A stretch of DNA of 35,982 nucleotides from a bacterium (GCA_021813175.1 JAKALJ010000002.1:1-35982), one strand, 5' to 3'. Positions 3,414 through 24,771 are shown, numbered from the stretch's first letter. The notes: generated from the sequence alone by a model not told the origin. Made by a program: numbers and translations.

Positions 3414-3860
3414 ATGGCTAATTACGCGGAAAACAAAAAAACCCGGTTTGAGTACGAGATTCTGGAAAGATACGAAGCGGGCATAGAGCTCTCCGGCATG
3501 GAGACAAAATCAGCGCGCGAGGGCAAGATGTCCTTGGAAGGTTCTTTCATAATTATCCGGGGAGGAGAAGCATTTCTGATTAACGCCAACATTACTCCCT
3601 TCCAACCGAGAAACGCCGGCGCGGATTATGACCCGCTCCGCAACCGCCGACTGCTCTTGACCAAAAAAGAAATTTTTGAGCTCGCGTCCGTAGAAAAGAA
3701 CAAAAGTTTGACAATTGTGCCTCTGTCGGTGTATAATAAAGGCAAGAAGATCAAGCTCAGTATCGCTATTGCTCGCGGCAAGAAGAATCATGACAAACGC
3801 GAAAGCATAAAGAAGCGCGATACGGAACGCGAGCTTCGTAGAACTTTGAAAGATTACTGA
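3414..3860 (+). CDS. smpB: SsrA-binding protein SmpB
   Basis: 148 aa. The N terminus NKKTRFEYEILERYEAGIELSGMETKS and the basic C-terminal tail are typical of SmpB, and tmRNA lies immediately downstream. Confidence 0.93.
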   Translation: MANYAENKKTRFEYEILERYEAGIELSGMETKSAREGKMSLEGSFIIIRGGEAFLINANITPFQPRNAGADYDPLRNRRLLLTKKEIFELASVEKNKSLTIVPLSVYNKGKKIKLSIAIARGKKNHDKRESIKKRDTERELRRTLKDY

Positions 3861-3883
3861 CACTGAATACGTCAATATGGCAC

Positions 3884-4038
3884 AGCAGTAGGAAAAGATA
3901 ATGCCCTGCTCATCGCGCGTTCCGGCCTGCTGGCCGGCCGCTATGCTCGTCGCTCGAAGAAAATTATGGTCGGAGTACCTCCCTAATTTTCTAAGCTCCT
4001 GCGCAATGATTCGCCGAGCATTATCTTTTCCTACTGCT
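3884..4038. repeat. Nested palindromic intergenic element, copy 1
   Basis: A perfect 21-bp outer stem (3884-3904 agcagtaggaaaagataatgc / 4018-4038) encloses three inner parts. These are hairpin ccggcc-tgct-ggccgg (3922-3937), the core gctcgtcgctcgaagaaaatta, and taattttctaagctcctgcgcaa. Both core segments recur almost identically at 7973-8053. Confidence 0.85.
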
Positions 4039-4061
4039 TACCGAAAAAACAATAACCTCAC

Positions 4062-4476
4062 GGGGATGCCAGGCATAGACAAAAGGCCTGCTCGCCCGAA
4101 TGCATGCCGAGTATGAGCGCAAACTCGCTAAACTTCGCTCAAAACGTTAATTGCAAAATTAACCGCTAAGGCCAAAGCTCTGGTCTCTCCGTACTTCGGT
4201 GCGAAGGACTTCGCTTTCGCTCCGGCTTTCGTTTAAGAAGGCCGGTGTCTCCCCTCTCTACTTCCGATAAAGAGGGAAAGGCATAACATTATCGGAATAG
4301 GAAGAGATTTTTTCCTGGTCTCTCTCCAAATCCGCCAGCTGGCGGATAAGGAATCGGCTTTCGGATATTTGGCTCGCTTCTGAATCCGGGAGCTTAAAAC
4401 CGCAAAGCGCGCTACGCATGTAGACTTTCCGGCGGCACTCTTTTGCACGGGGATTCAATTTCCCCCATCTCCACCA
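4062..4476 (+). ncRNA. ssrA: tmRNA (SsrA), about 415 nt
   Basis: The 5' GGGGAUG pairs with 3' CAUCUCC, including a G3-U70 wobble, followed by A-CCA (4473-4476). The T-arm is GGGGA-UUCAAUU-UCCCC, and the gene follows smpB. The likely tag frame starts at GCA 4153 (preceded by UUAAUU) and ends at TAA 4234-4236, giving AKLTAKAKALVSPYFGAKDFAFAPAFV. A shorter resume at GCG 4201 (AKDFAFAPAFV) cannot be excluded. Confidence 0.85.
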
Positions 4477-4519
4477 TAAAAAAAGAAAGACCTGAACGGT
4501 CTTTCTTTTTTTATGGTGG
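4471..4519 (+). terminator. Intrinsic terminator / 22-bp perfect palindrome overlapping the tmRNA 3' end
   Basis: ccaccataaaaaaagaaagacc-tgaac-ggtctttctttttttatggtgg. The GC core gaaagacc/ggtctttc is followed by a T tract. Confidence 0.75.
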
Positions 4520-5684: not shown

Positions 5685-5687
5685 TAG

Positions 5688-5733
5688 CCCGTCCCGCCGC
5701 TATCCGCCGACTGGCGGATAGCGGCGGGACGGG
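5688..5733 (+). terminator. 21-bp perfect hairpin after rplT (no strong U tract)
   Basis: cccgtcccgccgctatccgcc-gact-ggcggatagcggcgggacggg. The inner 16 nt belong to the tccgcc-NNNN-ggcgga hairpin family. Confidence 0.55.
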
Positions 5734-5743
5734 CCCCTTTGGT

Positions 5744-6745: not shown

Positions 6746-7269
6746 AACTGATTCTAGACTTTGATGATGTGCTGTTCAAGAACACCCCTGAATTCAAGGA
6801 CTGGATGTTTTCGGTAATCGCCGAAGCGGGAGTGATGAGGAAGAAAGCGGAAGCGGAATACAAGAAAGTTCGGATGGACCAGTTCTCTCTGCGCAATTTT
6901 CTGACCGGTTTAATTGGAAACGATGATATTTATAAAAAAATAATATCTATATGCTCAAAGTTGGTAAATGAAGAAATGATAGCGTCAGCGCGCCAAACCG
7001 GCCGGGAAAACTGTTACTTGGTCACCAACGGTGATAGGGAGTTCCAGGAGGATAAGATTAGGAGAAGTGGTATTGTCCCACTTTTTAAGGAAATCCATAT
7101 CTTGCCGGGAAGCAAGAAGGAAGTTATAGAAAAGATATGCCAGAAAAATCCGGGAGAGGAGATAATTTTTTACGATGACAAGGAAAAATTCTTCGCCGAT
7201 CTGGACAGGCGTAAATATCCGAATTTAAAGACTGTTTTGTACAAAAGAGGCGAACCTTTGGAACTCTAG
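6742..7269 (+). CDS. HAD-superfamily hydrolase-like protein
   Basis: 175 aa with motif I DFDDVL at the N terminus, LVTNGD, and a late YDDK acidic motif. It overlaps the upstream gene by 4 nt. Confidence 0.55.
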   Translation: MKLILDFDDVLFKNTPEFKDWMFSVIAEAGVMRKKAEAEYKKVRMDQFSLRNFLTGLIGNDDIYKKIISICSKLVNEEMIASARQTGRENCYLVTNGDREFQEDKIRRSGIVPLFKEIHILPGSKKEVIEKICQKNPGEEIIFYDDKEKFFADLDRRKYPNLKTVLYKRGEPLEL

Positions 7270-7892
7270 ACGTTCACCACTTTATATTCCTCGAGTTTAA
7301 ATTTTTTCAGCAGAGCGATCGCGTCCGCCACCAGTTTTTTGGGGTCGCTGCCGGTTATCACTTTGGCGTTCGGCCGATGGCTCTTTTCCAGAATTTCCTT
7401 CAGTTCCTCTCCCATATCCCAGGGACCTTCGTAAATGCCCACCACCTTGCCGTCTTCAAAGGCCACGGTAAATTCATGGATGGTGCCAATACGCCCGCAC
7501 CCGCAGATTACGATGTCCACCGAGCGGGTCAGGAGCAGATCCCGGCCGGGATAACCGAAGCCGGTATAAATGATCATGTCCATATAGTCAAGCGGCAATT
7601 TGAATGTTTCCGCGTGTTCCTGTTCAGTGGCGGCCGGAGAAAATCCGATGGAGATTCCGCCTTCTTCTTTGGCTCCCATGGCGGCCCAAAAGGGAAAGCC
7701 GGTGGTGGCGCCGGTAACCAGTATGGCTCCCTGGCGCGCTATCTCCCGGCCCAGTTCCTTGGCTTTTTCCAAAGCGCCTATACCGCAGTGGCCGGTCTCG
7801 GCCGCGCCGGAAACGCAAATCTTTATCTGGTCGTGCCCGTGTTTGACAAATAAATCAGCTTCCGGATTGTTTTGCATAACCTGATTATACAC
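7266..7892 (-). CDS. LOG/TIGR00725-family Rossmann-fold nucleotide-binding protein
   Basis: 208 aa, with ICVSGAA...GAILVTGATTG and GCGRIGTIHEF (resembling the LOG PGGxGTxxE motif). Confidence 0.6.
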   Translation of the reverse strand: MYNQVMQNNPEADLFVKHGHDQIKICVSGAAETGHCGIGALEKAKELGREIARQGAILVTGATTGFPFWAAMGAKEEGGISIGFSPAATEQEHAETFKLPLDYMDMIIYTGFGYPGRDLLLTRSVDIVICGCGRIGTIHEFTVAFEDGKVVGIYEGPWDMGEELKEILEKSHRPNAKVITGSDPKKLVADAIALLKKFKLEEYKVVNV

Positions 7893-7913
7893 GATTAAAA
7901 CTATTTCTAAAAG

Positions 7914-8083
7914 CTGAAAAGCAAGTTAGTCATCTCGAAAAGCACGCATATTCGCCTGCTGGCGAATTGCTCTGCTCGTCGCTCAAGAAAATTAGGGCTA
8001 AAAACATGATCCGAATCATGTTTTTAGCTTAATTTTCTAAGCTCCTGCGCAAGGCTTTTCTCAAAGACTAACTTGCTTTTCAG
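7914..8083. repeat. Nested palindromic intergenic element, copy 2
   Basis: A perfect 18-bp outer stem (7914-7931 ctgaaaagcaagttagtc / 8066-8083) encloses a stack of inner pairings. These are stem gaaaagc/gcttttc, hairpin attcgcc-tgct-ggcgaat (7950-7967), core gctcgtcgctcaagaaaatta, a 14-bp inner hairpin (7997-8028) and taattttctaagctcctgcgcaa. The core matches copy 1 while the stems differ. Confidence 0.85.
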
Positions 8084-8094
8084 TAATAATGGAA

Positions 8095-9459
8095 TTAACA
8101 ATCCAAAGTGACGCTGTCTCCTTGTTCCGGGGCGTAGGCTTCGATGCCGAGGTTGTCTCTGACTTTTTGCACCAGAAACATGGATGATTTCGGCTCTCCC
8201 ATTACCATAAACACTTTCTTTAAGGATTCCCGCATTTCTTGGATGAAGCCGAGCAGATGGTCCGAATCTTTGTGGCCGGAATATCCATAAATGTGCGCCA
8301 GATGCGCCCGGACTTGGACATATTCGCCCGCGATTTTCACTGTTTTCACCCCTTCTTCGATGAGTCGGCCGGGAGTACCCACTGATTGGTAGCCGATCAA
8401 AAGCAGGGTATTGTTCGGGTCCGGGAGATATTTCTGCTCATGATACACCACCCGTCCACCGCTCGACATCCCGCTGCCGGCAATGATTATCTTTGGGCTC
8501 TGAGCATCATCGATGGCCCTTGATTCTTCGGCGTTCAAGGTAAAACGCAGACCCGGAAATTTAAACAAACTCTTGTCCTCAATCATTATTTTTTGGGCTT
8601 CTTCATTGAAGTAACTTTTGTATTTCTGAAAAATTTCGGTGAGTCGAATGGCTAAAGGAGAATCCAAAAATACCGGCATCTCCGGTATATGGTCTTCTTC
8701 CACTAAATTATTTATCTCAAAAAGGATTTCCTGGGAGCGTTCCAAGGAAAAGGTGGGTATAATCAGCACACCTTTGCGGTGAAAGTTGTCTTCTATCACT
8801 TCTTCCAAGAGTAGTCGGCGATCTTCTCGCGATTCATGATTCCGGTCTCCGTACACGCTTTCCATCACGAGGTAATCCACCTTTTCCACCCTATCCGAAT
8901 CCGGCAGAAGGGGTGAAGGACTGTTGCCCAAGTCGCCGGTGAAAAGTATTTTTTTGTCGTTGTAAAAGAACTGCACCATAGCCGAGCCGAGAATGTGTCC
9001 CGCGTTCAAAAATACCGCTTGAAGCTTTTCCGATATCGAAATTTTCTGGCGATAATCGGCTGTCTGCCACAGGGAAAAAGCTCGGCTGATATTCTCTTTG
9101 GAATATATTTTATCGAGGTTATATTTGTCGCTTTTGCTTAAAATACCGGCGGTATCCTCAAGCATTGGTTTGGCCAAGTCTTTAGTGGGGGGAGTAGAGA
9201 TTATTTTTCCCTTAAATCCGTCTTCAACCAGTTTCGGCACTCGACCCAGATGGTCCACGTGGGCATGGGTAATGAAAAGAAAGTCAATTTCTTTCGGATC
9301 ATATGGGAAAGGCGCCCAGTTTGTTTCGTCCGCCAATTTTTCCGACTGAGTAAGACCGCAATCCACCAGAATTTTCTTCCCGTCCGCTTCTAAGAGAAAA
9401 TTAGCCCCAGTGACAGTGTTAACTCCTCCGCAAAAAGTCAATTTCACCTTATCTGCCAT
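8095..9459 (-). CDS. MBL-fold beta-CASP family ribonuclease (CPSF/RNase J-like)
   Basis: 454 aa with metallo-beta-lactamase motif FITHAHVDHLGRVP, a beta-CASP middle region, and a C-terminal HSGH-like segment (GYSGHKD). Confidence 0.8.
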   Translation of the reverse strand: MADKVKLTFCGGVNTVTGANFLLEADGKKILVDCGLTQSEKLADETNWAPFPYDPKEIDFLFITHAHVDHLGRVPKLVEDGFKGKIISTPPTKDLAKPMLEDTAGILSKSDKYNLDKIYSKENISRAFSLWQTADYRQKISISEKLQAVFLNAGHILGSAMVQFFYNDKKILFTGDLGNSPSPLLPDSDRVEKVDYLVMESVYGDRNHESREDRRLLLEEVIEDNFHRKGVLIIPTFSLERSQEILFEINNLVEEDHIPEMPVFLDSPLAIRLTEIFQKYKSYFNEEAQKIMIEDKSLFKFPGLRFTLNAEESRAIDDAQSPKIIIAGSGMSSGGRVVYHEQKYLPDPNNTLLLIGYQSVGTPGRLIEEGVKTVKIAGEYVQVRAHLAHIYGYSGHKDSDHLLGFIQEMRESLKKVFMVMGEPKSSMFLVQKVRDNLGIEAYAPEQGDSVTLDC

Positions 9460-9509: not shown

Positions 9510-9528
9510 GGAGCAGTCGGGAATATTC
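9510..9528. repeat. Partial, inverted copy of the Z repeat
   Basis: ggagcagtcgggaatattc is the reverse complement of gaatattcccgac(c)tgctcc found at 13489-13506. Confidence 0.6.
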
Positions 9529-9544
9529 TGTTGAGCTTATTTAA

Positions 9545-9704
9545 AAAGAAAAAATCCTCGCCGGCGAGGATTTTTTCTTAGGGTTATTCGCAATGTATTA
9601 CCGTAGCCAAAAAGCTAGGTGGGTGCCAGACGCTTCACGCCACGGCGCAAAACGATCAAAGCTCCCTAAAAAATACGTACTAGGTAATAATTGGAAATAA
9701 CCCT
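9545..9704 (-). ncRNA. Candidate small RNA (promoter - closed helix - intrinsic terminator), family unknown
   Basis: On the minus strand, TTGTCA-N16-TATACT is followed 6 nt later by AGGGUUAUU. That opens a roughly 20-bp terminal helix: 9704-9696 pairs with 9580-9588, 9693-9690 with 9591-9594, and 9689-9683 with 9596-9602. The helix encloses 80 nt. It is followed by UAAG and the terminator AAAAAAUCCUCGCCGGCGAGGAUUUUUUCUUUUU (9577-9545). Confidence 0.5.
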
Positions 9705-10425: not shown

Positions 10426-10442
10426 AGCTCGGCTATAAAGCT

Positions 10443-10540
10443 CCGCTCATCGCGCGTTCGCGCCTGCTGGCGCGCCGTCCGCCTCCGCCTTCGCCAGCTG
10501 GCGAATGGCGAATGGCGAAGGCGGATGGCGGAGGCGGAGA
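10443..10540. repeat. Partial nested element (X module) plus long hairpin built of GGCGRAK heptamers
   Basis: ccgctcatcgcgcgttc + cgcgcc-tgct-ggcgcg (10459-10474) matches 3906-3937. It is followed by tccgcctccgccttcgcc-agct-ggcgaatggcgaatggcgaaggcggatggcggaggcgga, whose 3' arm carries extra tandem 7-mers. Confidence 0.8.
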
Positions 10541-10544
10541 CAGC

Positions 10545-10578
10545 GACCCCGGAAAAAAATATTCCCGACCTGTCCCCT
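10545..10578. repeat. Z repeat, copy A (diverged)
   Basis: gaccccggaaaaaaatattcccgacctgtcccct, compared with copies at 13464-13508 and 24727-24771. It lies 46 nt downstream of the TraD-like stop codon. Confidence 0.75.
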
Positions 10579-10624
10579 GATTTCAAAATATGAAGCAGAA
10601 AGCAAGGCTCCCTATTTTCGCTCT

Positions 10625-13402
10625 TTAATTTTCTGCCACCTTTTCGTATCGGGACATAATTTCCGCTTCCACTTCCTCGCGGTCCCGGCCGTATTTCGTA
10701 TAGGAAAGCTCTTTCAAACTCTCTACAATATCGGCATTCCCCTTTTCCGGCGGAAGAGTCCTCATATTAAACGGTTTGGATGGTTCTCCGTTTATGAGCA
10801 TATTCACATAGGCGTTGTAATTCTCCAGCCGGGTGATGTCGTGGGCAGAAAAAGTCGGCTTGAACTTCGGCTCCAAGAACTGGGCGTCCTCGGCCCCTAC
10901 CCGAAACGCCGCTATGGAGCCGACGTTCCCGAACACCGCGTTCTTGATTCCCTCTTCCAACTGATTGATGTATTGGTGGGCGATATTGAGGGAGAGCCGA
11001 TATTTGCGCGCCTCGGACAAAATGGAGGAAATAGAGTCTGTGGTGACATTTTGAAACTCGTCAATATAAAGGTAAAAATCGTTCATCTTCTGTCCGAACA
11101 TATCCACCCGGGACAGGGCCGCCATCTGCATTTTGCCCACCAGTACCAGCCCGATCAGGTTCGCGTTGATATCGCCCAGCCGTCCTTTGGAAAGATTTAC
11201 CAATAGAATTTTCTTCTCGTCCATAATTTTACGGAAATTAAATACCGACTTCTGCTGCAGCACCACCGGACGCATAATGTCGTTGGAAATAAAATTGTCA
11301 AATTTGGAAGAAATATACGGCACAAAGTTAGCCAAGGACTGCTCCCCGCTAGTCTGCTCAGCCGAAACCCAGAATTGTTTGATTATCGGATTTTTACATC
11401 GAGCCAGTTTCAAATCCCGGAAATCTTTGTCCGCCAGAACCCGGGTGATTTCAAGCAGCGTGGAACCCGAATCAGGGTCTTCCATCACCAAAAAAGCGGA
11501 GTTACGGAAGTATTGCTCAAACATCGGTCCCCCGCCCACTTTCATATCAAAGAGCTTGTTGAAAATGTTCATCATTTCGTTCACCACGAAAGTCTTCTGC
11601 TCCGGATATTTCGGGTCATACTCCAGCATATTTAGGCCCATGGGCCGAGCGGTGAAGCTCGGGTCAAAATATATTACGTCCTCCATCCGCTCCTTCGGAA
11701 CGCGAGAGAGAATAGTTTGTATGTCCGTGCCGTGCGGATCTATGTAGCATACCCCGTCTCCGTTTTTGATGTCCTGGGTAATCATATTCAGAAGCACATT
11801 CGTCTTGCCGGTACCGGTTTGCCCAATTACATAGAAATGCCGCATGCGGTCTTCCCTCCCCATGCGCACCTCTGTATCTTTTCCGCGATAGCTGTTTAGG
11901 CCGAGCAGTATGCCCTCCTTGCTCATGGCAAGAGGGGCCGGCGCAATGCCGGACTTGGCTTCGCGGAGTTGGGGCATACTGCCCACTCCCACCGGAAAGT
12001 GAAAAATGGAAGAAAGCTCTTTTAGGTTCAGGGGCAAAACATTTTCCGGAGAAAAAGTCCGGTAGGAAAAATCATGATAAAGATGTTTCAGCTTGCTTCC
12101 GGCACATTCCCGAAAATACAGGGAGTTGCTGGCCGGCTCGGTGAACTGATTGAAGGAAGATTCAATTTCCCGCAGGATAGAATCCGCCCGTATTTTAGTG
12201 GGGGCCGAGGCGAGCACCCGGATGTTTGCTTTCATTACGCTGCTTTTGAGTTTGTTCCCTATTTTTTCCATGGCTCCTTCGTCCACTGCCCGGCGTCCAG
12301 GGGTGCTTAGTTCTTTGTTCTCTTTCGGCTCTTCTTTCTTCTTCACCCCAAAAATTACTTCCTTGGAAATGCGCAGAAAAGCTTTGTTAAACTTATACAG
12401 ATTATCATTGGCATGCTTCACGGACATGCCCCCTTTCACGTCGTCCAAGATTTTATGAAATTCGTTTATGTATTTATCTCCGGCCGGCGCCACTACCAGC
12501 TGGATGGCCGCGCCTTCGCCCGCGCTCGCGAGCTTGGAAAAAACGTTCAGGATAGTGTTCATGGGGTCGTGTTCAATATTGTCGTAGGTCTTGAGAGGCA
12601 TTACGGGCCGTTCGGAAAGTTCCGCGTACGCGCCCACGGCAACCCCATTTGGGCTGAAAATATTGTAATCGTCCTTTATTTCGCGCACTTTGGCGTCGTG
12701 GTAATAAGCCAAAATCTGCTTTTCAAAAAGGGAGATAAATTTATCCGGCACGGCGGCATACACCACCACCTCTTCACTGTCGCTTGAGAGAGCCACCTCC
12801 AGGACGAAATAGTTTTCAAATTCATTGTTCCTGCCCAAGGAAATGGAAGACATGCCCGCGTAAAACTGCTCCATGGCCCCGATGAATTCTTTGAAACTTT
12901 TCTGCTTTTCTCCTTCGTCTTCCGGAGGCGGCAAGGTTATCTCAAAGAGAGTCATGCGCAGAGCTTTGTAAAGAGGGGTTCCCTCTTTGAATGGAAAAGG
13001 AATATTGCCGGTTTTCAGGTATTGGATAAGTATCCGGTGAAAATCATCGTCAATGTGCGGATCGTTCATGTCTTCCGCCACCGACATTGCGTTCTTGATG
13101 CCTTTGGATATGACCACCCCGAGGAGCTCTTCCATAATCGTATCGTGCGCTTCCGGTTTCAGAGCAAGCACTATGCCTTTTCTTTCTTCCTCGGATATGG
13201 CGCTATCTTTATGCAGAGTTTCTTCCAGCGGAATTTTTCTGTATACAGAGAGAACATCCTTGGCCGCCTTTTCGCCCGCGTGTTCAAAATGGCCGGCATC
13301 CATCAGAACTTTCTCCCGGCTGGCCACCCGTTCCCGCAGATACGCAAGCTCCTCTTCCGGAGTCTTGAATTTCGGCATCTCGCTTAATAAAAATTCTTCC
13401 AT
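10625..13402 (-). CDS. TraD/VirD4-like (type IV coupling protein / DUF87-type) P-loop ATPase with a roughly 500-aa N-terminal region of unknown function
   Basis: 925 aa. The C-terminal half carries Walker A HFYVIGQTGTGKTN, Walker B-like FYLYIDEFQNV and ARKYRLSLNIAHQYINQL, as in the TraG/TraD C-terminal coupling-protein domain. No TM helix is visible anywhere. I do not recognise any motif in the N-terminal half. Confidence 0.7.
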   Translation of the reverse strand: MEEFLLSEMPKFKTPEEELAYLRERVASREKVLMDAGHFEHAGEKAAKDVLSVYRKIPLEETLHKDSAISEEERKGIVLALKPEAHDTIMEELLGVVISKGIKNAMSVAEDMNDPHIDDDFHRILIQYLKTGNIPFPFKEGTPLYKALRMTLFEITLPPPEDEGEKQKSFKEFIGAMEQFYAGMSSISLGRNNEFENYFVLEVALSSDSEEVVVYAAVPDKFISLFEKQILAYYHDAKVREIKDDYNIFSPNGVAVGAYAELSERPVMPLKTYDNIEHDPMNTILNVFSKLASAGEGAAIQLVVAPAGDKYINEFHKILDDVKGGMSVKHANDNLYKFNKAFLRISKEVIFGVKKKEEPKENKELSTPGRRAVDEGAMEKIGNKLKSSVMKANIRVLASAPTKIRADSILREIESSFNQFTEPASNSLYFRECAGSKLKHLYHDFSYRTFSPENVLPLNLKELSSIFHFPVGVGSMPQLREAKSGIAPAPLAMSKEGILLGLNSYRGKDTEVRMGREDRMRHFYVIGQTGTGKTNVLLNMITQDIKNGDGVCYIDPHGTDIQTILSRVPKERMEDVIYFDPSFTARPMGLNMLEYDPKYPEQKTFVVNEMMNIFNKLFDMKVGGGPMFEQYFRNSAFLVMEDPDSGSTLLEITRVLADKDFRDLKLARCKNPIIKQFWVSAEQTSGEQSLANFVPYISSKFDNFISNDIMRPVVLQQKSVFNFRKIMDEKKILLVNLSKGRLGDINANLIGLVLVGKMQMAALSRVDMFGQKMNDFYLYIDEFQNVTTDSISSILSEARKYRLSLNIAHQYINQLEEGIKNAVFGNVGSIAAFRVGAEDAQFLEPKFKPTFSAHDITRLENYNAYVNMLINGEPSKPFNMRTLPPEKGNADIVESLKELSYTKYGRDREEVEAEIMSRYEKVAEN

Positions 13403-13421: not shown

Positions 13422-13463
13422 CAACAAGAAAACCCTTCTTTTTTATTTGCTCCTCGGCTCGTC

Positions 13464-13508
13464 AGCCTGCGAGATACCCCGGGAAAGAATATTCCCGACC
13501 TGCTCCCT
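13464..13508. repeat. Z repeat, copy B
   Basis: agcctgcgagataccccgggaaagaatattcccgacctgctccct is 42/45 identical to 24727-24771. It ends 3 nt from the map stop codon. On the minus strand it contains the hairpin cgggaa-tattct-ttcccg. Confidence 0.85.
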
Positions 13509-14291: not shown

Positions 14292-14368
14292 CAACCTGCC
14301 AGATTGACCAACCAGCCAACCTATGAGAACAACCTGCCAGGTTGACTAGCTAGTCAACCTGGCAGGTT
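14292..14368. promoter_or_regulatory. Three copies of a 15-bp palindromic site CAACCTG-N-CAGGTTG (operator-like), two of them forming a 38-bp perfect palindrome
   Basis: The sites are caacctgccagattg (14292-14306), caacctgccaggttg (14330-14344) and caacctggcaggtta (14355-14369). Positions 14331-14368 form a perfect palindrome overlapping the pyrH stop codon. The sites lie 13-90 nt upstream of the map ATG. Confidence 0.5.
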
Positions 14369-24726: not shown

Positions 24727-24771
24727 AGCCTGCGAGACACCCCGGGAAAGAATATTCCCGACCTGTCCCCT
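24727..24771. repeat. Z repeat, copy C
   Basis: agcctgcgagacaccccgggaaagaatattcccgacctgtcccct. It ends 10 nt from the rplB stop codon, inside a 130-nt rplB-rpsS spacer. Confidence 0.85.

Follow-up and report, generated by a model that had tools for sequence, protein, structure and literature searches.

What kind of sequence fills the gap between two genes at positions 7,914 to 8,083 of a 35,982-nt stretch of bacterial DNA (GCA_021813175.1 JAKALJ010000002.1:1-35982; the whole stretch is referred to here as the window), and how did it get there? The 170 nt form a fold-back element, which we call copy 2; a related element, copy 1, lies on the same strand nearer the start of the window. A sequence-only reading of the locus had proposed a tiny mobile element nested inside a larger repeat that had landed in the loop of a terminator hairpin. 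We find that copy 2 is a member of a widespread, undescribed family in Nomurabacteria/Paceibacterota-type Patescibacteria. With moderate confidence, we read this family as fold-back repeats between genes that are mosaic and non-autonomous and conserve the fold and the junction bases, but not the orientation; ERIC, Correia, and BOX/BIME elements are the nearest in kind.

Copy 2 is flanked by two minus-strand open reading frames (ORFs). One of them (8095-9459) carries Beta-Casp, Lactamase_B, and RMMBL domains and ends with a stop codon 11 bases from the element, while the other, the LOG-like ORF (7266-7892), is assigned by Pfam to SLOG cluster 4 rather than to canonical LOG and starts 22 nt from the end of copy 2. 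In the promoter scan, the -35 box of the LOG promoter directly abuts the end of copy 2. This promoter lies outside the element and marks the insertion boundary. The outer arms form an 18-bp perfect inverted repeat, which extends to 30 nt at 87% complementarity in the repeat search. Moreover, the sequence folds at -79 to -85 kcal/mol on both strands (z -11 to -12 against shuffled sequence), and its core (7932-8066) scores 104 bits (E 1e-20) with the covariance model R1. The fold consists of a long outer stem (P1), a side hairpin (P2), an irregular helix at the junction, and a long distal hairpin (P3), for which several concentric helices, as seen in the sequence-only reading, is a fair description (Table 1). 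In the 5' arm of P1, the outer 12 nt are locus-specific and the inner TTAGTC is family-typical. The adjoining motif, TCTCGAAAAGC / GCTTTTCT(C/T)AA(A/G)(G/A)AC, recurs in many copies of other genomes. The junction helix pairs as C:G (followed by an A bulge), U:A, G:C, C:G, U.C, C:G, G.U ... GCU/AGC. In copy 2, the tip of P3 is of unusual length (GGGCTAAAAACATGAT-CCGA-ATCATGTTTTTAGCT); a terminator scan flags only this atypical tip (4 GC pairs of 14-16) and not the element ends.

Copy 1 is bounded by the smpB stop codon (3860) and the gene for transfer-messenger RNA (tmRNA; 4062-4476). Both copies contain an identical 23-nt block, TAATTTTCTAAGCTCCTGCGCAA (two matches in the window, none expected by chance), together with TGCTCGTCGCTC and the inner inverted repeat AGAAAATTA...TAATTTTCT, and carry GCTC on both sides of the inner hairpin. 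The hairpin tip GCCTGCTGGC, also present in both, has three matches in the window against 0.06 expected. Between the copies, the outer stems are unrelated in sequence and the small-hairpin stem differs as well, yet all pair within each copy. Both copies beat shuffled sequence in folding on either strand (z -8 to -12). Most of the features originally described are found where they were placed, among them the 18-bp outer stem near the beta-CASP stop, the minus-strand neighbours, and the common strand of the two copies. The third GCCTGCTGGC lies in a mosaic relative (10435-10580), in which the 5' box and P2 of the copy 1 type are followed by another GC-rich long hairpin (TGGCGAA duplication, 10472-10536) and a 45-nt 3' module. 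The window thus holds two full copies and one mosaic copy.

Table 1. Coordinates of the repeat copies, their parts, and associated features in the window
Feature	Position	Strand	Evidence or remark
Copy 1, whole element between smpB and tmRNA gene	3884-4038	+	R1, 97.7 bits
Copy 1, P1	3884-3904 / 4018-4038	+	
Copy 1, P2	3922-3937	+	
Copy 1, junction	3945-3955 / 3993-4005	+	
Copy 1, P3	3958-3992	+	
Copy 2, whole fold-back element, 170 nt	7914-8083	+	fills gap from beta-CASP stop to LOG promoter
Copy 2, P1 outer 5' arm CTGAAAAGCAAGTTAGTC	7914-7931	+	pairs perfectly with 8066-8083
Copy 2, internal loop ATCTC and P1b 5' strand GAAAAGC	7932-7943	+	motif in many copies of other genomes
Copy 2, 5' box ACGCAT, type B	7944-7949	+	kept as CACGCATA in type-B copies
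Copy 2, P2 side hairpin ATTCGCC-TGCT-GGCGAAT	7950-7967	+	all 7 pairs covary, 61 copies
Copy 2, linker and junction helix 5' strand TGCTCT-GCTCGTCGCTC	7968-7984	+	pairs with 8039-8053
Copy 2, P3 distal hairpin	7985-8038	+	base AGAAAATTA/TAATTTTCT conserved
Copy 2, junction helix 3' strand AAGCTCCTGCGCAAG	8039-8053	+	same sequence in copy 1
Copy 2, P1b 3' strand GCTTTTC, loop TCAAA, P1 outer 3' arm GACTAACTTGCTTTTCAG	8054-8083	+	sequence, repeat search, fold
LOG promoter TTTAGA, 16 nt, TATAAT, preceded by TG	7884-7911	-	promoter scan
Mosaic relative, 5' box and P2 (GCTCATCGCGCGTT-CGCGCC-TGCT-GGCGCG) as in copy 1	10435-10580	+	84% identical to 3898-3940 (43 nt)
Proposed "empty site", distal and 3' modules of another repeat (CTCG-GCTCGTCAGC-CTGCGAGA..., then CCCCGGGAAAGAATATTCCCGACCTG)	13455-13508	+	45-nt repeat; match in L008

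Scanning 185,579 species-representative genomes with the pattern GCTCGTCGCTC-N25-55-AAGCTCCTGCG returned 94 loci. About 65 of them have a near-constant 58-nt core and lie in metagenome-assembled genomes (MAGs) of Patescibacteria, labelled as Nomurabacteria, Paceibacterota, Minisyncoccia, Parcubacteria, or "Saccharibacteria". The remaining loci are GC-rich chance matches within genes, for instance of Sorangium. A single genome has up to five exact-pattern copies (MFWK01), and R1 adds more. The aligned copies follow a common plan of about 140-190 bp. The outer stem P1 is variable, whereas the inner stem has an internal loop or mismatch that is conserved. The other parts are a 5' box, P2 with an NGCU loop, a linker, the irregular junction helix, and P3. 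The 5' box occurs as type A (AATCTATC), type B (ACGCATA, the type of the window), or type C. P3 combines a conserved base with a variable tip, in most copies a 6-bp tip with an ANTA loop. Additional copies detected by R1 include short forms, in which a mini-hairpin of 9-13 nt takes the place of the long P3 and the sequence reads ...CT-GCTCG-GCTACCCGC-CTGCGC-AAGG.... Either a type-A or a type-B core is found with the same arm types at non-orthologous loci; modules (arm type, 5' box, distal hairpin) are combined differently among copies. Together, the mosaic relative in the window and the short forms identify the distal end as a variable module and the family as mosaic. Rfam 15 at gathering score returned only tmRNA, tRNAs, and chance-level matches for the window and 16 loci, and no credible match at E<=10 for both window copies and a typical type-A copy. 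Neither BLAST of phage and plasmid collections nor viral contigs (0 matches) yielded a match, and literature searches returned no earlier description of the element; TIGR arrays are tandem guide arrays and unrelated.

Clustering of the flanking ORFs revealed at least eight orthologous gene pairs with both filled and empty states, as predicted for an inserted element. At four of these sites, filled and empty gaps measure 167 vs 15, 144 vs 3, 162 vs 5, and 226 vs 36-40 nt, and in each case the difference covers the whole palindrome with its arms. The unit that is present or absent is the whole palindrome, arms included. At the beta-CASP/LOG site, L100-L103 (beta-CASP 68-70% identical) and L112 (46%) have only 24-35 nt from the beta-CASP stop to the LOG start codon, with a promoter and no hairpin; R1 detects nothing in these empty metagenome relatives, and promoters comparable to the LOG promoter fill the sites of L102 and L103. 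In contrast, L074 (beta-CASP 84% identical) carries the element between the same two genes in inverted orientation. Outer arms, P2 stem, and P3 of L074 bear no relation to the window sequence, but all still pair, and the LOG promoter flank CTTTTAGAAA...TGTGTATAAT is conserved. Empty outgroups and the filled site in L074 thus identify the element as an insertion in the lineage of the window and L074. As far as the hairpin-free outgroups show, it did not enter a pre-existing terminator hairpin. Further, the inner parts of the outer stem (TTAGTC, ATCTC, GAAAAGC / GCTTTTC, TCAAA, GACTAA) are family-typical, and hence the arms arrive with the element. Both results speak against an insertion into a terminator loop.

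The 24-nt gap between ORF clusters 15 and 40 in L029 (GATTTTTGAAATAGTTCTTGAGAT), nominally empty, closely resembles a single P1 arm of the L012 element at the same site, and could be either a solo-arm footprint of loss or a preferred target. L076 (TACTTCTTCAAAATG) presents a weaker solo-arm-like case.

Orientation is not tied to the neighbouring genes. For 48 copies, the strands of the flanking genes are arranged as (-,+) in 14, (+,+) in 13, (+,-) in 11, and (-,-) in 10, so that about 30% lie between divergent genes; the trend relative to the majority coding strand is weak (37 vs 26). The element occupies essentially the entire intergenic gap, and the neighbours are housekeeping genes (atpD, serS, clpP, recA, dnaK, ftsZ, and others). 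Moreover, both orientations are found at one and the same orthologous site in four cases: the sites designated (0,4), (2,9), and (52,53), and beta-CASP/LOG. The (0,4) site has a DEDD-exonuclease-like gene on one side and a small gene starting MLHEQIK on the other. Across the tree of the flanking protein, orientation there is scattered while the position stays constant (44-49 nt), which argues for repeated flipping in place rather than separate insertions. The mixed flanking arrangements and the two orientations at one site support the DNA-level or orientation-independent element first suspected from the window alone; the element behaves as a feature of the DNA or of its fold, whichever way it lies.

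Copies also recombine with each other. Two contigs of sample ERZ27237563 (L004:15330-15680 and L154:4437-4846) are reciprocal hybrids through copy 1 relative to window positions 3850-4280: one has the order smpB, copy 1 5' arm, core, foreign 3' arm, and the other has a foreign 5' arm by ruvA, followed by the core, the copy 1 3' arm, and tmRNA. The arms of these hybrid elements are non-complementary. The junctions are probably real, since the sequences are identical over about 96 nt, less than the assembler k of 141. The hybrids thus point to a third full copy next to ruvA and to strain-level rearrangement by recombination between copies. Four independent short-read Logan contigs (L155-L158) end within P2 of copy 1 (at about window position 3933), indicating that the repeat breaks assemblies.

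The fold is maintained by compensatory changes, while loops, bulges, and junction bases are almost invariant. In P2, all seven pairs covary across 61 copies, for example as CG30/GC16/UA15 at one pair. In P3, 8 of 13 pairs covary, as seen in L074, L096, and L097, and the closing pair of the junction helix, beside the bulged A, varies as CG50/AU10/GU1. Standard pairs make up 98.3% of pair cells, compared to 82.6% in shuffles and 36-52% in slid controls, and double-change cells number 252 vs 68 in shuffles (0 of 500 shuffles reach 252). The 5' GCU and 3' AGC segments are paired in 61 of 61 aligned copies, an invariance partly imposed by the search pattern. This pairing also bears on the GCTC repeat, which had been taken for a 4-bp target duplication: GCTC does flank the inner hairpin in every long-form copy, but GCT/AGC is a paired helix segment, and the direct repeat arises because AGCT is self-complementary.

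Constraint is distributed very unevenly over the element. At the (0,4) site, compared across 11 species whose flanking protein is 60-86% identical, identity amounts to 53% in the outer arms, 63% in the P3 tip, and 75-81% in the P2 stems, but reaches 91.5% in the 5' box (type A), 93-97% in the inner stem, 97-98% in the P3 base, and 100% in both the P2 loop and the linker. Inner stem, 5' box, P2 loop, linker, and P3 base are left free by the search pattern; the copies were nevertheless chosen for an intact 22-nt core, and template switching in palindromes can yield paired changes without selection. Such a pattern of identity marks a structure to which something binds or acts in a sequence-specific way, and is hard to reconcile with passive junk.

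How, then, could such an element behave? On the reading as a mosaic fold-back repeat, it would act or spread as a folded single strand, either as DNA exposed in replication or recombination or as read-through RNA, and a trans-acting factor would recognise the conserved junction and loops. Orientation changes repeatedly at fixed orthologous sites, and the asymmetric centre might flip via exchange or template switching between the arms, as the loops of chloroplast DNA hairpins do. Such template switching may also contribute to the paired stem changes. In the window, copy 2, if transcribed, would form the 3' end of the beta-CASP message, where it would appear as its reverse complement.

Several observations weigh against this reading. 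Neither an autonomous partner nor a transposase was recognised among 75 flanking-ORF clusters, of which the N-terminal sequences were read by eye and no domain search was run; one cluster, next to two copies, is a XerD-like recombinase, and reading the flanking ORFs by eye revealed no RAYT-type or Y1-like ORF near the copies. Neither a target-site duplication nor a target motif was found at about 58 computed boundaries, although AT-rich flanks blur the ends of the arms and a recent insertion was not among the available copies. Calling boundaries by minimum free energy over-extended into these flanks, and the anchored extension used instead still gave no target duplication. Mobility is read only from presence and absence between species, never from a recent event. 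Terminal inverted repeats are not kept between copies: the inner arm is conserved within subfamilies and the outermost 12-20 bp vary. Outer arms that differ among copies yet pair within each are not explained by a simple cut-and-paste or copy-and-paste miniature inverted-repeat transposable element (MITE). Orientation follows local GC skew in a weak trend (39 vs 23). P2 and P3 contain G.U and A.C mismatches in similar numbers (about 10 each), which singles out neither strand as functional. Most copies were retrieved by a pattern fixing 22 core bases; decayed copies are thus under-sampled, and the invariance of the core is partly built in. Finally, near-perfect conservation of the unpaired core at an apparently vertically inherited site is not predicted by passive selfish DNA and fits a host-beneficial element better.

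We hold it tentatively possible that the element is more than selfish DNA and belongs to a set of hitherto unrecognised functional nucleic-acid modules in Patescibacteria. Its three-way junction has invariant loops and bulges, which would be recognised by a conserved cellular factor or be themselves catalytic, it would act as folded single-stranded DNA or RNA either way round, and selection would keep it at orthologous sites across a class-level clade.

Somewhat less probable, though still to be taken seriously, is a structured non-coding RNA family, that is, a trans-acting or protein-binding untranslated or intercistronic module with several gene copies, in which the outer stem serves as the closing helix and all behaviour at the DNA level is secondary. 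Covarying stems with near-invariant loops, bulges, and junctions are a classic signature of functional RNA. The three-way junction with its conserved bulged A and conserved non-Watson-Crick positions points the same way. A distal stem of variable length (long, short, and extended P3 forms), persistence at one orthologous site across the 11 species despite the divergence of the flanking protein, and the sense orientation of copy 1 in the smpB-tmRNA spacer would also suit an RNA. However, orientation is random with respect to the neighbours, even in co-directional contexts (13 vs 10), and repeated flips at one site leave conservation unharmed. With the whole gap filled by the element, there is no room for its own promoter, and no read-through transcript would be expected for the 14 of 48 copies between divergent genes. 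Orientation and the missing promoter space are the weightiest of the objections. Mismatch counts carry no strand signal, an essential RNA would not usually be so sporadic between related species, and Rfam offers no matching family. More specific candidates fared no better. A small ORF on the minus strand is rejected, as an AAGGAGG-like string occurs in one subtype only, no frame is conserved, and P2 covaries as CG/GC/UA. The 16S rRNA 3'-end mimic GGATTACCTCCTTT occurs in just one P3 subtype. Retron-like RNA, Y RNA, 6S RNA, and self-cleaving ribozymes, considered for their resemblance only, find neither an adjacent reverse transcriptase nor an Rfam match.

We consider it improbable that the host has selected the element as an orientation-independent cis-acting RNA hairpin, which between the genes of a compact genome would terminate transcription in both directions, stabilise 3' ends, or serve as a ribonuclease processing site. 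The placement of copy 2 would suit this role, as it starts 11 nt past the beta-CASP stop and the LOG gene has an independent promoter immediately downstream of the element. Either strand can form a long hairpin and, read 5' to 3', has a first arm rich in A and a second arm rich in T. Equivalent sites of other genomes hold plain hairpins. Yet a terminator is not needed between divergent genes, where about 30% of the copies lie, and the terminator scan flags the P3 tip of copy 2 rather than the whole element. Such a role would also leave unexplained why junction and loop bases are invariant, why there is a P2 branch, and how the many relatives manage with only 3-40 nt at the same sites.

Least probable, and largely refuted, is the nested model, in which a tiny element with ends of 9-10 bp (AGAAAATTA...TAATTTTCT) and a GCTC target duplication sits within a larger repeat in a terminator loop and leaves an empty site at 13458-13473: although GCTC flanks every long-form inner hairpin, short-form relatives lack that hairpin, some orthologous sites hold plain hairpins (L042, L081, L082), and plain long perfect hairpins follow rplT and the tmRNA gene in the window, the model conflicts with base-paired GCT/AGC as a structural repeat in a conserved helix, with about 0.9 Mb of related DNA in which the inner hairpin always appeared in its usual context, with short forms that read GCTCG-[9-13 nt]-CTGCGC instead of the predicted join GCTCGTC-GCTC-CTGCGC, with hairpin-free empty beta-CASP/LOG sites, with family conservation of the inner two-thirds of the outer stem, and with the membership of the 13458 sequence in a separate 45-nt repeat family. 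The string ctcgtcagcctgcgag is indeed present at 13458-13473, but it lies in this 45-nt repeat (13464, 24727, 10534) and is no empty site of the present element. It matches the distal module of another palindromic family, ...CTCG-GCTCGTCAGC-CTCGAAACCCC in L008, which also occurs in L006 and L071; R1 gives no detection at E<=1 on 13455-13508. In sum, the observation underlying the sequence-only reading is confirmed and its interpretation partly supported.

Among known systems, the closest in kind are the ERIC/IRU elements of Enterobacteriaceae, intergenic imperfect palindromes of 127 bp that occur in either orientation, are present or absent at orthologous sites, have internal indel variants, lack a transposase of their own, and form long hairpins when transcribed. 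The window family resembles them as a set of small non-coding imperfect palindromes in either orientation, with presence/absence variation and no own transposase. In contrast to ERIC arms, which belong to the consensus, its outer arms are copy-specific yet self-complementary. It further differs in its three-way junction, covarying side hairpin, and core near-invariant at class level, belongs to another phylum, and has no sequence similarity to ERIC. Correia elements (CREE, Neisseria) and MITEs are likewise dispersed sequences of about 100-190 bp with inverted ends, located near gene ends or promoters, which yield hairpin RNA if co-transcribed and serve as recombination substrates. In Correia elements, the terminal inverted repeats (26 bp) are conserved and the target duplication is TA, whereas neither a target duplication nor a conserved terminal repeat was found for the window family, and we know of no related insertion sequence (IS) element. 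The modular mosaic build and stable secondary structure recall BOX of pneumococcus and BIME/REP of E. coli. Unlike these, the window family lacks boxA/B/C, REP, and the GTAG-type 5' motif of REP/BIME or IS200/IS605-derived PATE in its consensus, has no RAYT seen near its copies, and is far less abundant (few exact-pattern copies per genome).

Two further comparisons concern single features. Chloroplast hairpin inversions and quasipalindrome template switching share the recurrent flipping of an enclosed segment at a fixed site, against phylogeny, and could make paired arm changes; however, they represent a mutational process rather than an element family and account neither for a conserved core nor for new sites being reached. 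With integron attC sites and IS200/IS605 ends, the window family shares a folded single strand, conserved unpaired or extrahelical bases, variable terminal structure, and stems kept by structure rather than by sequence. In contrast, the window family has no integrase, cassette array, R/L boxes, Y1 transposase, or clear replication bias in evidence, its consensus contains no GTTRRRY core-site motifs of attC, and its neighbours are housekeeping genes. Copy-specific arms, the three-way junction, the near-invariant core, and frequent in-place flipping set the window family apart from ERIC, Correia, and BOX/BIME.

Other repeats and genes in the data set were noted alongside the family. The separate 45-nt repeat AGCCTGCGAGAYACCCCGGGAAAGAATATTCCCGACCTGYCCCCT occurs at 13464-13508, 24727-24771, and 10534-10578 (copies 93% and 71% identical), with a partial reverse copy at about 9511-9537; one copy lies inside the ribosomal-protein operon in the gap after rplB, and the repeat has no Rfam match. 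Between two repeat modules lies the minus-strand gene of a 925-aa protein (10625-13402) with weak matches to TraG/VirD4 type IV secretion coupling proteins, DUF87, and DUF8128. Plain long hairpins (4471-4519, 5687-5734, 14293-14368, 9546-9575), some of them 22-bp perfect, fill most other intergenic gaps of the window, and nearly all gaps >55 nt are occupied by a hairpin or palindromic repeat. The perfect 22-bp hairpin after rplT (5687-5734) confirms one that had been pointed out before; another follows the tmRNA gene (4471-4519). The tmRNA gene itself was detected by Rfam (111 bits) but missed by ARAGORN. Only 23 nt separate the end of copy 1 from this gene, so that either the 3' arm of the element overlaps the ssrA promoter or tmRNA is processed from an smpB co-transcript. 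A tRNA-Ile gene with the anticodon TAT lies on the minus strand at 1334-1408; this anticodon is uncommon in bacteria, where AUA is usually decoded via a modified CAU anticodon.

Outside the window, another palindromic family with variable arms and the core CTGAGCCTTCGCCCTCGGAGTCATAAGGACAGGGGATCCACGACTC is found at L026:6559-6660, L065:3619-3765, L087:3002-3102, and L094:5099-5192. It occurs in both orientations at one orthologous site, where L030 instead has a copy of the family described here, and it has no Rfam match. More small palindromic families of like design lie at L008:1902-2012, L006 (about 7260-7330), L071:2094-2185, L083:4423-4533, and L030:4136-4223, with cores such as GGTACGGATTTTTTGAAGCTTAAAAAATCCTGAAATTCTCG-mini-hairpin-CTCGAAACCCC, AAGGTCCTCGGTTCCCCGGGTCCCTCCCCCGGCCAGACC, and CTTGCGCTTTACCATAAAGTGCTCCGACGCGATGGC. 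A large set of other core families is rejected, as intergenic clustering gave few small extra families in a sample biased to loci of the present family. At L078, the same arms seemed to enclose a different core, but this is a type-B-like relative in reverse complement, with another distal module. Additionally, no core-less copy turned up that would make the outer palindrome an independent plain hairpin repeat.

The genomes of Patescibacteria (candidate phyla radiation) are very small and dense, and repeats and mobile DNA are generally considered scarce in them. A structured, widespread repeat between core genes (smpB/tmRNA, ATP synthase genes, recA, dnaK) is unexpected in such genomes. The family is a source of genome rearrangement and breaks metagenome assemblies. 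Its junction bases remain almost unchanged across very divergent species despite flips, recombination, and patchy presence, which implies a recognition partner. The family offers an alignable starting point from which to look, in an uncultured lineage, for either a new mechanism of mobilisation or a new functional fold of RNA or DNA.

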